A DNA stretch of 64,000 bases from Mobula hypostoma (lineage: Eukaryota). The notes beneath the pieces are model-generated. The model saw only the letters and a program-made list of their open reading frames with translations, made no database searches and had not been told where the DNA came from. The stretch's first letter is position 1; the number at the start of each line of letters is the position of its first letter. Made by a program: the position numbers and the translations under genes. The stretch covers positions 25,854,001 through 25,918,000 of the forward strand of contig NC_086108.1 of the NCBI RefSeq assembly GCF_963921235.1, in the 5' to 3' direction. Shown one piece after another: positions 1-55,282 of the stretch.

Positions 1-118
1 ACTTCTGATCCCTCGATGAGGACTGGTGTCTGTTCACTCGTCTTACTCTTTCTGAAGTCCACAATCAATTCCTTGGCCTTACTGACATTGAATGCAAGGT
101 TGTTGCTGTGACACCGCT
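1..118 (-). mobile_element. Rex1/Babar LINE RT fragment
   Basis: Minus strand reads CHSNNLAFNVSKAKELIVDFRKSKTSEQTPVLIEGSE, the same motif as the other Rex1-type copies in the window. Confidence 0.75.
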
Positions 119-162
119 CAATTATATGCCTTTTTGTCATCATCTGAATGTCCGTTTGGTGC

Positions 163-3169: not shown

Positions 3170-3312
3170 ACACAAGAAACTCTGCAGATGCTGGAAATCT
3201 AAAACAACATACACACGCACACACAGAATGCTGGAGGAACTCAGCAGGTCAGGAACCATCTGTGGAAATGATAGTCAACATTCTGGGCTGAGACCCTTCT
3301 TCAGGACTGGAC
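3170..3312 (-). mobile_element. Penelope-like terminal repeat, decayed hammerhead
   Basis: Minus strand CAGTC-CTGAAGA-AGGGTCTCAGCCC-AGAA-TG-TT-GACTA; same family as 36269-36408, with the GAAA box mutated. Confidence 0.75.
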
Positions 3313-13633: not shown

Positions 13634-13860
13634 GACACAAACAAAATGCTGGAGGAACTCAGCAGGTCAGGCAGCATCGATGGAGAGGAGGTTTAAAAAA
13701 TAATAATGCTTCAGGCTGAGATCTTTTATCAAGACCTGATGAAATATCTCAGTCTGAAATGTCAACTCTTTATTCCTCTCCATAGATGCTGCCTGGCCTG
13801 CTCAGTTCCTCTAGCATTTTGTGTGTGTTCATCTGTATTTCCAGCATCTACAGGATCTCT
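13634..13860. mobile_element. Inverted (head-to-head) pair of Penelope-like terminal repeats
   Basis: 13634-13735 is the approximate reverse complement of 13736-13828; junction ...TCAAGAC|CTGATGAA... Confidence 0.75.
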
Positions 13861-37150: not shown

Positions 37151-37156
37151 ATACCA

Positions 37157-38368
37157 GCAACACACATCAAAGTTGCTGGTGAACGCAGCAGGCCAAGCAG
37201 CATCTGTAGGAAGAGGTGCAGTCGACGTTTCAGGCCGAGACCCTTCGTCAGGACTAACTGAAGGAAGAGTAAGGGATTTGAAAGTTGGAGGGGGAGGGGG
37301 AGATCCAAAATGATAGGAGAAGACAGGAGGGGGAGGGATAGAGCCAAGAGCTGGACAGGTGATAGGCAAAAGGGGATACGAGAGGATCATGGGACAGGAG
37401 GTCTGGGAAGAAAGACAAGGGGGGGGGGACTCAGAGGATAGGCAAGAGGTATATTCAGAGGGACAGAGGGAGAAAAAGGAGAGTAAGAGAAAGAATGTGT
37501 GCATAAAAATAAGTAACAGATGGGGTACGAGGGGGAGGTGGGGCCTAGCGGAAGTTAGAGAAGTCTATGTTCATGTCATCAGGTTGGAGGCTACCCAGAC
37601 GGAATATAAGATGTTGTTCCTCCAACCTGAGTGTGGCTTCATCTTTACAGTAGAGGAGGCCGTGGATAGACATGTCAGAATGGGAATGGGATGTGGAATT
37701 AAAATGTGTGGCCACTGGGAGATCCTGCTTTCTCTGGCGGACAGAGCGTGGATGTTCAGCAAAACGGTCTCCCAGTCTGCGTCAGGTCTCGCCAATATAT
37801 AAAAGGCCATATCGGGAGCACCGGATGCAGTATATCACCCCAGTCGACTCACAGGTGAAGTGATGCCTCACCTGGAAGGACTGTTTGGGGCCCTGAATGG
37901 TGGTAAGGGAGGAAGTGTAAGGGCATGTGTAGCACTTGTTCCGCTTACATGGATAAGTGCCAGGAGGGAGATCGGTGGGGAGGGATGGGGGGGACGAATG
38001 GACAAGGGAGTTATGTAGGGAGCAATCCCTGCGGAATGCAGAGAGAGCGGGGGAGGGAAAGATGTGCTTAGTGGTGGGATACCGTTGGAGGTGGCAGAAG
38101 TTACGGAGAATAATATGTTGGACACGGAGGCTGGTGGGGTGGTAGGTGAGGACCAGGGGAAGCCTATTCCTAGTGGAGTGGTGGGAGGATGGAGAGAGAG
38201 CAGATGTACGTGAAATGGGAGAGATGTGTTTAAGAGCAGAGTTGATAGTGGAGGAAGGGAAGCCCCTTTCTTTAAAAAAGGAAGACATCTCCCTCGTCCT
38301 AGAATGAAAAGCCTCATCCTGAGAGCAGATGCGGCGGAGACGGAGGAATTGCGAGAAGGGGATGGCAT
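37157..38368 (-). mobile_element. 5'-truncated Penelope-like element (Neptune-type) with GIY-YIG endonuclease and 3' terminal repeat
   Basis: ORF 37782..38288: FKERGFP...PLVLTYHP...CKRNKCYTC (Cys linker)...FTCESTGVIYCIRCSRYGLLYIGET; continues past a stop to RLGDRFAEH...VATHFN...LQPDDMNIDF. Confidence 0.92.
37219..37256 (-). ncRNA. Minimal type I hammerhead ribozyme motif, core intact
   Basis: Minus strand TAGTC CTGACGA A GGGT-CTCG-GCCT GAAA CG TC^GACTG; stem I UAGUC/GACUG. Confidence 0.8.
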
Positions 38369-40009
38369 TAGGACCAAGCCAGCTCCCAGGGGTGGAATCT
38401 CATTAGTTCCTGGAAAATAACCAGCACGATCGGGTAAAGGGTGCCATGCTGGAGTAGCAGATAGTTCTGCAATTACACAGTTCTGGGGGCTCAGGTTCAA
38501 TCCAAACTTCAGCTCCTATCTGTGAAGAGTTGGCATACTAGTTATAGATTAGAGTTCTACATCAAGGACACATTCTCCATTTGACTCTATGGGCTTCCTC
38601 CAGAGATTCTGGTTTTGTCCTACATCTCAAAAATGCTGATAGATTAATTAATAAATTACCCCTTACTGAGGTTAATGACAAAAAAGAATCAAAGTTGATT
38701 TGATGAGCATGATAGAGAGAACAAATTGTATGATACAAGGAAATAAGGAGAAGGGGAATAGGACTTGTGGGATTGTTCTCCTGTGAGCTAGCATAGACCA
38801 GTTATACTCCTTCAATATCATGACAAATTTAAGAAAGGAGGTAAATTAGTCAGTACAGCCAAGAAGGTGGGGGAAGTTAAAATGAAGGTGGCAGTGGCAG
38901 TCACCCAAAGGTAATTTTTCCTTAATAAATTCAGCTGAACTCACAAATGTACGTTTGTATATTGGCCAGGAGGTCACCTCATCAGTACCATTTGGACAAA
39001 ACGTGGAGTAGTACCAAAGATGAAGGATATATTGCAAACTAAAAGAGGGTCTGTTATATATGATAGATGGAGGCTCCAGGCCCACCAGTGTCCTTATTAG
39101 ATGCTTGAAAAGATAGGTTGAGCCTTTGGCAACTCACTTCAACTCTCTTTAATCTGTTAGGTGTGGTGTGTGAACCACTTGCCTCTAGACTAAGACATCC
39201 ATCAAGGTTTCAAGAATATGCTTTAATTTGTCAAAATGAGATATGTCACAGCTTCACAACAGGAAAATGAAAAGGGTATAGGCCAAAAATTAAAAAGGGC
39301 CATAGAGCAAGGGAAGACACACTGTGAAATTCCTCAGCAATGACTGCAGTTTTGAAGGTAGATGGTGCTGAATAAAGAACTGGAACTATACTTGTTATTT
39401 AATATATGAACAGGTATCACAAAGCTGTGGAAAGCTAACTTTCAGTGCGGCTAGATGTCATAAATATTTAATGACCTGTGTTGCAGCAGCAACTCTGTAG
39501 AGATGATGCTGCTAGCAACAGTCAGCCTTAGCTTGGAGTTCCTTCCTCCCACAGATACGAAGTTGAAATGATGCTGCTTTGAAGTAATGAAAAGCTCACA
39601 GTTAATTCCAGCCAATTTGGAAAGTGCAATCCTTCTTTTCAAAGAAAAGAGCAAATGTCAAAAACAATAAAACCCTCCAAATGCTGATTGGAATAATTAA
39701 GACTTAATGTGTCTAATGTGATTTGCTTCTCCGCATTATGCAATAATGCTCATTTTATTTTGTGCTGTGTTAGGATTAACTGAATTTGCAATTACATTTT
39801 TACTAGGTTTATTCCTGGAAAGAAAAGGTTAATATTTAAAGAGATCAGCCCAGTTTGGGCTAATACACATCTGTGTGTACAAGAACAAGAGCTGATTGAG
39901 GTATTCAGACAGTATATTAAGAACTTTTAAAAGGCACTTGAACAAGTACTTCTTTACATACTGCTCGTAATGCCACTGGCAGGAATGAAGTTCCTCCATT
40001 TTAGAAGGA

Positions 40010-50584: not shown

Positions 50585-51957
50585 ACTAAAGCAAAGTATT
50601 CATTAAGGACCTCCCTACCTCCAGGCACATTTCCTCTTTATCGTTGATCGGTCCAAACCTCAATCGTGTCATCGTCTTGTTCAAAGTTCAAAATTCAAAG
50701 TAAATTTATTATCAAAGTACATATATGTCCCCGCATACAACCCTGAGAATTGTTTTCTAGTGAGCATACTCAGTAAATCCAAGAAACATAATAGAATCAA
50801 TGTGGGATTGCACCCAAAAGGATGGAAAAACAACCAATGTGCAAAAGACAACGAACTGCAAATATAAAAGAAAAATAAATAAATAAAGAAAGAAGCAATG
50901 AATATCGAGAACAGGGGATGAAGAGTCCTTGAAAGTGAGTCCACAGGTTGTGGAAGCAGTTCAATGATGGGGCGAGTAAAATAATCACCACTAGTTCAAG
51001 AGCCTGATGGTTGAAGAGTAATAATTGTTCCTGAACCTGTTGAAGCAGGTCCTGAGGCTATTGTACCTTTTTCCTGATGGCAGCAGTGAGAAGTGATCAT
51101 GTCCTGGATGGTGGGGGTCCTTGATGATAGATGCTGCTTTCTTGCAACTGTACTCCGTATAGATGTGCTCTGTGGTGGGAAGGACTTTACATATGATGGA
51201 CTGGACGATATTCAGTACTTTTCGTGGTTTCCATACCAGGCCATGTGCAACCAGTCAATATACACTCCACCACACATCTATCAAAGTTTGTCAAAGTTTT
51301 AGATATCATGCTGAATCTTTGCAAATTTCTAAGGAAGTAGAGGCAATGCTAAGCTTTCTTCTTAATTGCTTGTGTGCTGGGCCCAGGAGAGATCCTCCGA
51401 AATGATAACAATGAGGCATTTAAAGTTGCTGAACCTCTCTACTTTAGCTCCCCGGCTCATGGACATCCGGTTTCCTCCTCCTGAAGTTAATAATCAGCTC
51501 CATGGTCTTGCTGACATTGAGTGAGAGGTTGTTGTTTGGCACCAGTCAGCTATATTTTCAATCTCTCTCCCATTTGCTGATTTGTCACCACTTTTGATTC
51601 AACCAACAGTGGTGTCGTCAGCAAACTTAAATATGGCATTGGAGCTGTGTGTAGCCTCTCAGTCCTGAGTATAAAGCAAGGAGAGCGGGAGATGAAGCAC
51701 ACAACCTTGTTGAAGGAAATTGTGGAGATGTTATTGCCAATCCAAACTGACTGGGGTCTGCAAGTGAGGAGGTACTGAGGCCAAAATCTTGCAGCTTATT
51801 GATTAGTTTTGAAGGGATGGTGGTATTGAATGTTGAGCTGTAGTTAATACACAGCATCTTGATGTATATACCTTTGCTGTCCAGATGCTCTAGGGTTGAG
51901 TAAAAAGCCAATAAAAAGGTGTCTGCTGTGGACCTGTTGTGCTGGTAGACAAATTGA

Positions 51958-52460
51958 ACTGTAAAGATGAAGCCACACTCAGGTTGGAGGAACAACACCT
52001 TATATTCCGTCTGGGTAGCCTCCAACCTGATGGCATGAACATTGACTTCTCTAACTTCCGCTAGGCCCCACCTCCCCCTCGTACCCCATCTGTTACTCTT
52101 TTTAATGCACACATTCTTTCTCTCACTCTCCTTTTTCTCCCTCTGTCCCTCTGAATATACCTCTTGCCCATCCTCTGGGTCACCCCCCCCCCGTCTTTCT
52201 TCCCGGACCTCCTGTCCCATGATCCTCTCGTATCCCCTTCTGCCTATCACCTGTCCAGCTCTCGACTCCATCCCTCCCCCTCCTGTCTTCTCCTATCATT
52301 TTGCATCTCCCCCTCCCCCTCCAGCTTTCAAATCCCTTACTCACTCTTCCTTCAGTTAGTCCTGACGAAGGGTCTCGGCCTGAAACGTCGACTGCGCCTC
52401 TTCCTATAGATGCTGCCTGGCCTGCTGCGTTCACCAGCAACTTTGATGTATGTTGCTTGA
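51958..52460 (+). mobile_element. Young Penelope-like 3' fragment, same subfamily as 37157-38368
   Basis: Near-identical inverted copy of 37157-37651; CKDEATLRLEEQHLIFRLGSLQPDGMNIDF plus terminal repeat; TTGAA at both junctions. Confidence 0.9.
52357..52394 (+). ncRNA. Minimal type I hammerhead ribozyme motif, core intact
   Basis: TAGTC CTGACGA A GGGT-CTCG-GCCT GAAA CG TC^GACTG. Confidence 0.8.
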
Positions 52461-53047
52461 AGTGGATCCCGGTCATTTCACAGGCAGGAGTTGATATGTT
52501 TCATTACCAATCTCTCAAAACACTTCATCACTGTGGATGTAAGTGCAACTGGGCAATATTCATTGATGCAGGTTACCACATTCCCTTAGGCATCAGCATA
52601 ATTGAAGCCTGCTCGAAGCAGGTGGGTACCTCAGACTGCCAAAGCAAGAGTTTAAAGATATTGGTGAAGATATGTTTAGGACATCTTGAATTTCCCTTGA
52701 TCCTACTCTCCAAGGTCTTCTCATGTCCAGTTCTTCTAATTCCCTTCTTCCTGGCTACCTTATTACTTTTGAGACTCCTGTCTGATCTTTGCTTCCTTAA
52801 CCTTAAGTATGCTTCCTTCTTTCTCTTGACTAGAAATTTCACATCTCTTCTCAACCATGGTCCCTTCACCTTCCTTGCCTCAGTGGGGCAAACTTATCCA
52901 GAACATCATGCTCCCTAAACAACCTCCACATCTCTGTTGTGCATTTCCCAGAGTGCATTTGTTCCCAATTTATGATTTTCCCTCCCTTATTTAAATATTT
53001 TTCTATACTATTTGTTCCTATGCCTATCCAAGGCTATAATAAAGGTT

Positions 53048-53368
53048 TCCCATGGCGGTAAGAACGAGGGTGACAAAGAACAATCCAACCAAGAGCTCAA
53101 TCGTGGAACAGGCGAACTAAGTTACTTCGAACTTGACGGCTGTGAAGGTAGACGAAGGTTGCAACAAATCCATCAGCTCCAGTCGTCGTGGTTTCCATGC
53201 CATTGGAATCAGTTGGTTGATTTGTGAAGTATCATGTGCTTCTCGGAGTGCAACATCAAGTACATGTTAAACAAATACACGCTAAACATCTTTACTCTGT
53301 GGGCCACTTCTTCAGAACGAAGACCATCATCCTCAACCTCGAGGGATAGCCATGAAGATGATGGATGG
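53048..53368 (+). mobile_element. Unclassified non-LTR retroposon 3' fragment
   Basis: 8-bp TSD TAAAGGTT (53040-53047, 53369-53376); GATG-like tail; interrupts the CR1. Confidence 0.65.
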
Positions 53369-53583
53369 TAAAGGTTAGGGATTTGTAGTCACGCTCTTTG
53401 AAATGTTCACCCATCGAGAGTTCTGAAACCTAATCTGCTTCATGCTAAGCACTAAATCCAGGATGGCCTCTCCTCTAGTCAGCCTGCCTACATACTGCCC
53501 CGTCTAAGGAGGAACCAAGGAGGAATCAAGGAAGTTAAAGTCACCTATGACAGAATCCTTACTAGCTAATCTCTTCCTTCAGT

Positions 53584-53621
53584 TAGTCCTGACGAAGGGT
53601 TTTGGCCTGAAACGTCGACTG
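53584..53621 (+). ncRNA. Minimal hammerhead ribozyme, unit 1, core intact
   Basis: TAGTC CTGACGA A GGGT-TTTG-GCCT GAAA CG TC^GACTG; predicted cleavage after C53616. Confidence 0.8.
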
Positions 53622-53641
53622 CACCTCCCTCTTCCTTCAGT

Positions 53642-53679
53642 TAGTCCTGACGAAGGGTTTCGGCCTGAAACGTCGACTG
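53642..53679 (+). ncRNA. Minimal hammerhead ribozyme, unit 2, core intact
   Basis: TAGTC CTGACGA A GGGT-TTCG-GCCT GAAA CG TC^GACTG; UUCG loop in stem II; predicted cleavage after C53674. Confidence 0.8.
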
Positions 53680-53768
53680 CACCTCTTCCTTGAGATGCTG
53701 CCTGGCCTGCTGCGTTCACCAGCAACTTTTATGTGTGTAGCTAATCTCTTACTAGCTCTTCTTTCAGT

Positions 53769-53806
53769 TAGTCCTGATGAAGGGTCTCGGCCCCAAACAT
53801 CAACTG
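53769..53806 (+). ncRNA. Hammerhead unit 3, probably inactive
   Basis: TAGTC CTGATGA AGGGTCTCGGCCC CAAA CA TC AACTG: GAAA changed to CAAA, and the palindrome and first stem I pair are lost. Confidence 0.65.
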
Positions 53807-54304
53807 TACCTCTTCCTAGAGATGCTGACTGGCCTGCTGCGTTCACCAGCAACTTTGATGTGTATTGCTATGACAGAATCCTGTTATTTTTGCATTTTTC
53901 CAAAATCCGCCTCCTGATCTGCAGCTCAGTGTGTCTGTTGCTATGGGCGGTGGGGAGAGGATCGTAGAGTCCTTCAATAAGTGATCGCTCCCTTCTGTTT
54001 CTGACTTCAACACATATTGACTCAGTAGACAATCCCTCCACGATGTTCTCCATTTCTGCTGCAGTGATACTATCCCTGATTTTCAATGCCACTCCCTCAC
54101 CTCTTCTACCTCCCTCTCTGTTGCTTTTGAAATATCTCAACCCCTGAACATCCAGCAACATTCCTGGCTTGTGACAGCCAAGTCTCTTTAATGGCCAGAA
54201 CATTGTTGTTCTACGTATATACTGATCCATGCTCTGATTTAATCTCCCTTCTTCCTGGTACTTCTTACATTAGAATAGAGACATCAACTCTATTCGTGCT
54301 TCAG

Positions 54305-55282
54305 ATCAGGTACAGGTATCAATTTTAACCGATGTTCCAATGACATTCTCTGCCACCTTCATCTACTGCTGCTGATTTCTCTGGATAACCCAAACATATA
54401 CACCTCCTATGCTTCTTGACGAGCATTTCAACTGTGCATCCCACCTGGCCGATATAGGCTGCTCCGCATTCACAGGGAATCTTGTAAATGCCAACAGTTC
54501 AGACCCGGAGTCTCCACGAGGAATTAAGTCAATTATGCACGGCGTTTCTACAGGATGGTGAAGGAAAATCAATCGAACCCTTAAAAGGGCTGATGGAAAA
54601 ACTAGGAAACCTAACAATGAAGAGGAACCCATCTCCCTCACCTGTCTTCACTATATTTCCACGATTTCCAGAAGGATCACCAGAATCCTGAGGAAATACA
54701 TTAGTACCATCCATAAACCTGTAAAGAAGCTCAAATCACAGCTTCTGTGGGTCAAAGGTGATTTGTGGCACAGGACAGCTTGCTTTTACAGGATTCCCTG
54801 TGAATGCAGAGCTGCGTATCTCTGCCAGACGGGACGCATGGTGGACCCACATTAAGGAGCACGGGGGATGTATCCATTTGCATTACCTGGAGAAATCAGT
54901 GGTAGCAGAGCATTACATTCACAATGGCCACAGGATTGACTTTGACGGCACAAAACTACTGTGCCTGGCTTTTGGGACTGCCTGGTGAAGAAAGCCATTG
55001 GAAACAAAACTAGAGGAAAATAATTTTAACAAAGACGAGGTCTCGCTCTAAGTAAGAACTGGAGTTTGATTGTAAACAAGGTGGCACAGCGGAAACCTGA
55101 TTAGATGTGGACCAATCAGGAGGGACGGATGGTAGGGGTATAAATACCACCAGACTGGACTTATCCAGGCTTCATCCCTGTTGAAGATAGCAGAGCGCAT
55201 CAGTTAAAATCGATAACTGTATCCGGCTGGTAGCCCAAGAAGAATTTATTTGTCATATACACCAGGAAAGGACTAGATCCTT
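54305..55282 (+). mobile_element. Penelope/Poseidon-type PLE with an inverted 5' segment
   Basis: Plus strand FYRIPCECRAAYLCQTGR...IKEH...EKSVVAEHYIHNGHRIDFDGTKLL (GIY-YIG domain, no Cys linker); 54305-54510 is an inverted copy of the terminal repeat and the GIYKIPCECGAAYIGQ region. Confidence 0.8.

Follow-up and report, generated by a model that had tools for sequence, protein, structure and literature searches.

A tandem of minimal hammerheads in what is very probably Penelope-like pLTR debris in the genome of Mobula hypostoma

The closest described relatives of the locus analyzed here are the EN+ Penelope-like elements, the minimal hammerheads that these elements carry in metazoa, and the non-LTR retrozymes. 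As far as the available text of the reports goes, EN+ Penelope-like elements have hammerhead-bearing pLTRs, encode a reverse transcriptase (RT) with a C-terminal GIY-YIG domain, show 5' truncation and inverted partners, end at two 3' sites and form composite insertions (PMC8557442, PMC11167929); a CX2-5CxxC linker between RT and EN is given for the Neptune clade and is common to Nematis (PMC8557442), and the Anolis element is described as having two internal priming sites and a 30-40-bp tail (PMC11167929). The metazoan minimal hammerheads, in the accessible part of PMC4209133, have a type I core with an extra base between positions 9 and 10.1, a palindromic 15.2-16.2 segment without loop III, a short stem I and a G-C pair at 10.1-11.1 reported as highly conserved, and their copies lie about 3 kb apart. 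Non-LTR retrozymes combine head-to-tail type I hammerheads, target-site duplications (TSDs) longer than 4 bp and a pLTR origin (PMC7229834, bioRxiv 10.64898/2026.07.22.740005, both in excerpt); they are described as multi-locus families of repeats of about 300 bp with canonical type I hammerheads and a GC content below 45-50%, expressed as RNA that processes itself into linear and circular forms (PMC7229834). The portion of the preprint available to us gives retrozyme units of 51 to 972 bp, lists one cartilaginous fish and derives animal retrozymes from Penelope pLTRs by phylogeny, leaving the first step open (bioRxiv 10.64898/2026.07.22.740005).

The locus lies in a 64,000-nt stretch of contig NC_086108.1 of Mobula hypostoma (hereafter, the window). 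It is similar to EN+ Penelope-like elements in its hammerhead pLTR, in the RT and C-terminal GIY-YIG of related copies, in their CX4CX2C linker (Neptune/Nematis), in the two 3' end sites and in its composite structure, but it consists of non-coding end-pieces only, and its 58-nt hammerhead stutter at a 5' junction is not among the features described in the accessible text of those reports. Its hammerheads have the type I core, the extra base, the palindrome without loop III and the short stem I of the metazoan minimal hammerheads, but their stem II is of 4 bp with G.U at 10.1-11.1, and the copies are 58 nt apart. It has the head-to-tail type I hammerheads, the TSD longer than 4 bp and the pLTR origin of the retrozymes, but its ribozyme is minimal, and the unit is 58 nt long and of 55% GC, with one match in the genome at up to one mismatch. 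We consider it very probable that the insert is Penelope pLTR debris rather than an independently spreading element. The literature, of which coverage is incomplete, yielded no account of junction-coupled hammerhead stutters, which is weak evidence of novelty.

The insert, its hammerhead units and the LINE host site

The insert (53560-53867, 308 bp, GC 49.7%) contains no open reading frame and is bounded by identical 15-mers at 53545-53559 and 53868-53882 (+ strand, as are all parts of the insert), as the first-pass annotation of this DNA had claimed; a second direct repeat, a 13-mer at 53563-53575 and 53738-53750, was likewise confirmed and behaves as a true TSD. The chance of such a repeat pair at one site is about 3e-7 for the 15-mer and about 4e-6 for the 13-mer. 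None of 14 LINE paralogues shows a duplication or an insert at the host site, which supports the outer 15-bp TSD as real; the 15-mer is single copy in the paralogues, and in four of the 14 the left-flank alignment passes uninterrupted across the insertion site. The host sequence, a LINE fragment that has decayed, lies on the minus strand (53883-54269, resuming left of the insert to ~53525); it has at least 3,411 candidate paralogues, the best of them 81% identical. The minus strand of the host flank reads VIGDFNF and the paralogues contain TETW, GDFN and SDH, all of which we take to be AP-endonuclease motifs. Of the proposed CR1 endonuclease host, the decayed LINE and the endonuclease-like motifs of its paralogues stand, but Pfam is silent (no match to the 133-aa frame of the host LINE) and the label CR1 is presumed.

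Within the outer TSD, the left edge (53560-53575) is the 5' junction of an older insertion, formed by a short element-derived duplication (53558-53567; similar 5'-junction micro-duplications occur in copies L020 and L030) and the start of a pLTR piece, and it includes the left copy of the 13-mer. Next comes a younger insertion of 162 bp (53576-53737), derived from a subfamily-A pLTR that lacks its 5' part; it opens with 58 nt duplicated head to tail and stops at the first of the two 3' ends common in the family. The right copy of the 13-mer (53738-53750), recognized by the TSD starts of other copies ending in TAGCT, leads into the rest of the older insertion (53743-53867), which is a piece of a solo pLTR from subfamily B.

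Three hammerhead units are present, with CTGAnGA at 53589, 53647 and 53774; a distance of 58 nt separates the first from the second, and TRF reports 53571-53685 as period 58 x 2.0 with 98% matches. Units 1 (53584-53621) and 2 (53642-53679) are minimal type I hammerheads by their core letters and predicted stems I and II; both contain GAAACGTC, at 53609 and 53667, with predicted cuts after 53616 and 53674. Inspection of the letters confirms that they keep CUGANGA, GAAA, UH and the palindromic 15.2-16.2. The stems annotated for them are borne out in part: stem I has five pairs (four Watson-Crick and one G.U), but only two pairs of the 4-bp stem II are Watson-Crick, the 10.1-11.1 pair and the closing pair being G.U. 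Unit 3 (53769-53806, with CAAACATC at 53794) is decayed, as had been noted from CAAA in place of GAAA, and has lost the palindrome as well (ACAT). A single base, at a CpG, distinguishes unit 1 from unit 2, and both have a rare loop-II T (frequency 0.01 among 69 subfamily-A copies). An Rfam search of 52500-55000 at E<=10 gave no hammerhead and two weak unrelated matches. The G10.1-C11.1 pair is replaced by G.U not only in units 1 and 2 but in 68 of 70 subfamily-A copies, which indicates that subfamily A amplified with a possibly weakened ribozyme; the younger subfamily A, including the intact-frame copies L140-L144, has G.U in place of the conserved pair. Stem variants across distant families are mostly decay variants.

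Both outer junctions are bridged by contigs that carry a second organism label (two runs of one sample); these contigs reach 25 letters beyond the inner left junction (the bar being 31 letters). The sample, X1, may be the assembly's own. For organism B, the matches of the 453-455-nt contigs are confined to 53456-53600, with the record orientation inferred, which suggests that the left flank beyond 53456 differs between the two organism labels; the site is not covered by the contigs of organism D. That the tandem is an assembly artefact appears extremely improbable: among the matches listed, no contig spans the dimer junction, and the region is flooded by repeats, but units 1 and 2 differ at a base, the outer junctions are bridged under the second label, and comparable tandems exist at 28 other loci, most of those examined with clean TSDs.

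The parent Penelope-like family and how its copies insert

A degenerate 34-nt core pattern has 59,983 exact matches in the 3.48-Gb genome, and long frames were numerous among the 138 scored matches of a protein search. Six long-frame copies were fetched, chosen for length; in five of them (L140-L144) the frame is 1,043 aa long, and the hammerhead motif flanks the frame on both sides in four of the six, as it also does in L090. The two frames scanned both match RVT_1 (E 4e-5) and GIY-YIG (E 0.004), both below the curated Pfam cut-offs; Pfam searches with three broken L090 frames and a PDB sequence search with one L090 frame gave no matches. The RT-EN linker of L141 reads CKRNKCYTC, that is, CX4CX2C, which by its sequence would be the Neptune/Nematis type. 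Unit 2 agrees with the pLTRs of the long copies at 99-102 of 108 positions (100-102 where the ORF is intact), and with those of the dispersed copy L026 at 107 of the 108. Unit 3 agrees with the dispersed copy L007 at 113 of 117. These pLTR matches, together with the motif-flanked RT/GIY-YIG frames, identify the insert as pLTR sequence of an autonomous Penelope-like family. The recognition of the units as Penelope-type minimal hammerheads is thereby supported both by their core letters and by their pLTR origin, and so is the distinction of two variants, unit 2 belonging to subfamily A and unit 3 to subfamily B.

Other close copies of the family in the window lie at 37156-38370 (-), ~51955-52457 (+) and 36276-~36410 (+); two of the three comprise the end of a GIY-YIG-like frame with the pLTR directly behind it, and one is a solo pLTR with a tail. 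More distant relatives occur near 3218, 13635-13828, 40478, 41271 and 47274. Elsewhere, an open frame of 1,625 codons at L145:1691-6565 joins the Penelope ORF, without a change of frame, to ~580 codons upstream that have another origin. Three LINE fragments, L045, L046 and L054 (C96), are nearly identical and share one Penelope insertion together with its TSD; they probably reflect a segmental duplication.

Insertion behavior was surveyed with the 3' part of the element as anchor. The 70 rows come from 54 ten-kb stretches picked by position (two of which adjoin the window), from the window and from loci examined earlier; they contain some duplicates, inverted insertions can contribute both of their arms, and copies in the window itself are among them. 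The parent family shows 5' truncation, an inverted partner and an optional 30-40-bp tail. TSDs of 10-15 bp were detected in 47 of the 70 rows, with a mode of 13-14, so that both duplications at the locus are of a length usual for the family. The 31 rows that were not chosen by their 3' end fall into two clusters, with 17 ending at +91..102 and 13 at +123..142 as counted from C3, which fits the two priming sites and the tail of the Anolis element in the available part of its description (PMC11167929); units 2 and 3 both stop at the first site. The 5' ends fall at -30..+16 of the hammerhead core in 33 of the 70 rows, five of them at -30, where unit 3 also starts; this clustering possibly reflects the RNA 5' end or an RT stop. 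Hammerhead cleavage was rejected as the origin of the 5' ends, only one of the 70 being located at the predicted cut (+28).

Probable nested insertions and the duplication at the 5' junction

The first-pass annotation proposed that a younger piece had inserted into an older one with a second TSD of its own, and this part is supported by the TSD-like behavior of the 13-mer and by the stronger decay of unit 3. The genome contains 512 copies ending in TAGCT, of which 30 were examined: five run into the tail, seven (mostly long copies) have no detected TSD, and among the 18 non-tail copies with a detected TSD, 16 begin it at (T)AGCT. An origin of the 13-mer as mere TAGCT-subfamily sequence was rejected, given that only five of the 30 copies run into the tail and 16 have TSDs there. 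Unit 3 keeps two of six CpGs and unit 2 five of five, and unit 3 has five differences from the commonest letters of its subfamily; at the subfamily level, CpG retention is 0.69 for B vs 0.91 for A in 142 copies, a sample picked in part by CpG-containing patterns and hence biased towards retention. The old look of unit 3 could reflect an old template. The junction between units 2 and 3 was matched by the window alone, with a pattern that omitted a common G variant. Penelope-like elements tend to insert into or beside earlier copies, according to the consulted part of PMC6765202.

A single integration, in which RT jumped from a subfamily-B RNA to a subfamily-A RNA and stuttered, leaving the 13-mer as a junction by-product, would account for the common orientation of all pieces and for the eight of 13 bases of the 13-mer that come from the element; a comparable composite, L002, lies within a single TSD, the five tail-running copies show that TAGCT can be element-borne, and no intermediate allele with unit 3 alone was seen in the second-label contigs (one sample, two runs). 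We nevertheless regard a single event as distinctly unlikely: the 13-mer is absent, at up to one mismatch, from all six long elements, it has the modal TSD length and starts where the TSDs of TAGCT copies start, and unit 3 is more decayed than units 1 and 2. Nesting is the better reading of the two duplications, and two target-primed insertions in sequence are likely to have occurred.

The 58-nt duplication was followed through the genome. Dispersed copies of the dimer, which the first-pass annotation expected and whose absence it counted against itself, were not found in 3.48 Gb: at up to one mismatch the 58-nt junction occurs once, and in a separate search it was one of 11. The scan for dimers with their own TSDs did recover tandems, but these are ordinary Penelope insertions, mostly with different junctions. 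The tandem search asked for two exact 17-mers recurring with a period of 47-72 nt. It returned 40 matches, from 29 loci, where single anchors numbered 67,335; because of the exact 17-mers this is a lower bound. The periods are 48-71 nt. Of 33 loci, 32 were parsed, with four rows distorted by mismatches or mixed periods. The tandem starts within 8 nt of the 5' edge of the insertion at 27 of the 32 loci, an inverted partner adjoins 20, and the insertion edge is within 40 nt of the core at 28, compared with 15 of 45 comparable rows of the general sample; most tandem loci examined have TSDs of their own, 12-16 bp long. At eight of the 29 loci the junction removes the cleavage site or the 3' strand of stem I, two adjacent intact hammerheads are kept at 11 of 32, and only two of 32 junction intervals include the cut position, one of which (L173) is explained by 4 nt of microhomology.

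Longer arrays also exist. L184, L191, L193 and L194 hold 3-6 hammerhead units: L184 is a six-unit array of two alternating 61-nt types, L191 mixes 33- and 71-nt units, which break off just after GAAA, L194 mixes 46 and 71 nt, and L193 has four intact 67-nt units. A fixed RNA circle was rejected as the template of the arrays, given the variable junctions and the periods mixed within one array; the mixed periods of L191 and L194 are better fit by repeated stop-and-restart. Two loci on C12, L168 (66737108) and L169 (73089602), 6.35 Mb apart, have a common 62-nt dimer junction and a private base, so that this dimer, located inside a pLTR, was probably copied more than once; the tail of L169 extends beyond that of L168, suggesting a third source copy. 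This pair is the only sign of dimer re-copying. A wider 62-nt lineage was rejected: only these two loci are exact, and the third match, L200, is a solo copy with a TSD that happens to look like the junction.

Later slippage or unequal crossing-over between the CTCTTCC-type repeats that flank the hammerhead, following two nested insertions, would explain the rare base common to units 1 and 2 and their single difference, at a CpG. Such events do happen, given that in L168, L180 and L192 the duplication is inside a longer copy; L163 and L181 both have a 54-nt period that rests on 8-9 nt of microhomology, and the alternation of two types in L184 is what local amplification would give. For the present locus we find slippage unlikely, because the period is 58 with ~3 nt of microhomology, where the perfect repeat would give 54, and because the repeat starts at the insertion edge, as at 27 of 32 loci. 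A restart at the 5' junction of the younger insertion is the likely alternative, by analogy with the microhomology-primed second-strand synthesis at R1/R2 5' junctions (PMC2718515, in excerpt), which are not Penelope-like elements.

The history that we favor, with moderate confidence in the three steps taken together, thus combines two nested insertions with a restart at the 5' junction. The element's protein would have nicked the LINE fragment with a 15-nt stagger, and priming inside the pLTR, ~95 nt past the hammerhead core, would have led to the copying of ~125 nt (unit 3, subfamily B). Later, reverse transcription of a subfamily-A RNA would have been primed at the TAGCT that the older copy carries immediately inside its 5' junction, producing the 13-bp duplication. 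Synthesis across the new 5' junction would have halted after ~58 nt and begun again on that cDNA end through 3-5 nt of microhomology, doubling the hammerhead; the ribozyme cut would have no part in making or moving the tandem.

Cleavage potential and the origin of hammerhead arrays

The first-pass annotation further proposed a non-autonomous retrozyme-like dimer that cleaves itself in cis, releases a 58-nt RNA that might circularise, and is mobilised as such. Both cores are intact, and the proposed pairing of the two ACGU palindromes in cis is topologically possible, the double hammerhead being nested and free of pseudoknots; one other dimer is present at two loci, and 3-6-unit arrays exist. 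In its tandem and energy terms, the operational definition of a retrozyme in the accessible part of the 2026 preprint (a TRF tandem with two consecutive complete hammerheads, each below -5 kcal/mol; bioRxiv 10.64898/2026.07.22.740005) fits the locus, with period 58 x 2.0 under slightly different TRF settings and -11 kcal/mol for each unit, although each unit reaches this energy outside the active fold. The cis pairing is, however, predicted to be barely populated: helix III pair probabilities are 0.000 in the predicted dimer ensemble, and the active cis-dimer fold lies 17.1 kcal/mol (core only) or 23.1 kcal/mol (with context) above the ensemble, in a folding model that ignores Mg2+, tertiary contacts and proteins and was run without a positive control. 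In the same terms, 11 other natural hammerhead pairs lie 18-24 kcal/mol above their ensembles. The active fold competes with a hairpin that hides CUGACGA, predicted both in the insert and in the pLTR of an intact element.

The bases upstream of stem I (53576-53599), in every pLTR folded, are predicted to pair with CUGACGAAGG, masking the core. By the 3' splice-site consensus, the same bases resemble a 3' splice site, with a pyrimidine tract and AG, and with TACTAAC upstream in some copies. Judged from the sequence, splicing would take away the strand that blocks the hammerhead core. A 3' splice site has been reported for the D. virilis Penelope (PMC4209133, available portion).

Experiments on related hammerheads point to low activity: in the parts of the reports available, minimal hammerheads show no activity as monomers and low activity as dimers (PMC4209133), one of nine Xenopus dimers cleaved (bioRxiv 10.64898/2026.07.22.740005), and the Anolis hammerhead requires protein and is dispensable for insertion in vitro (PMC11167929). 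The dimer would cleave weakly at best, and clear cis cleavage by it is doubtful. Its mobilization as a retrozyme-like dimer appears very unlikely to us, given also the single-copy junction and the 3' end of the insert at a normal Penelope priming site outside the 58-nt circle: the inner insert ends ~60 nt past the proposed circle, so that the circle cannot have been its template. The mini-element interpretation is not supported, the units being ordinary pLTR ends with a unique junction, and the mostly different junctions of the other tandems avoiding the cleavage site.

The insert works like an ordinary composite Penelope insertion, of a known kind, and its tandem is probably a one-off by-product. 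The locus itself is ordinary retrotransposon debris, and its use lies in the genome-wide tandem series to which it leads. Judging by the roughly 30 independent short tandems, such repeats usually arise at the 5' junction of the insertion and not at the ribozyme cut, and the 11 of 32 loci with two adjacent intact hammerheads form a natural panel for the study of close cis-dimer cleavage. A broader proposal, which we put forward as speculative and rather improbable, is that Penelope integration makes hammerhead arrays (2-6 units of 46-71 nt) by 5'-junction restart, some of which self-cleave in cis and are copied again. Self-cleavage would then perhaps be aided by the element's protein, and re-copying is hinted at by the 62-nt dimer of L168 and L169; if the proposal is true, the locus would be a snapshot of the birth of an animal retrozyme from pLTRs.
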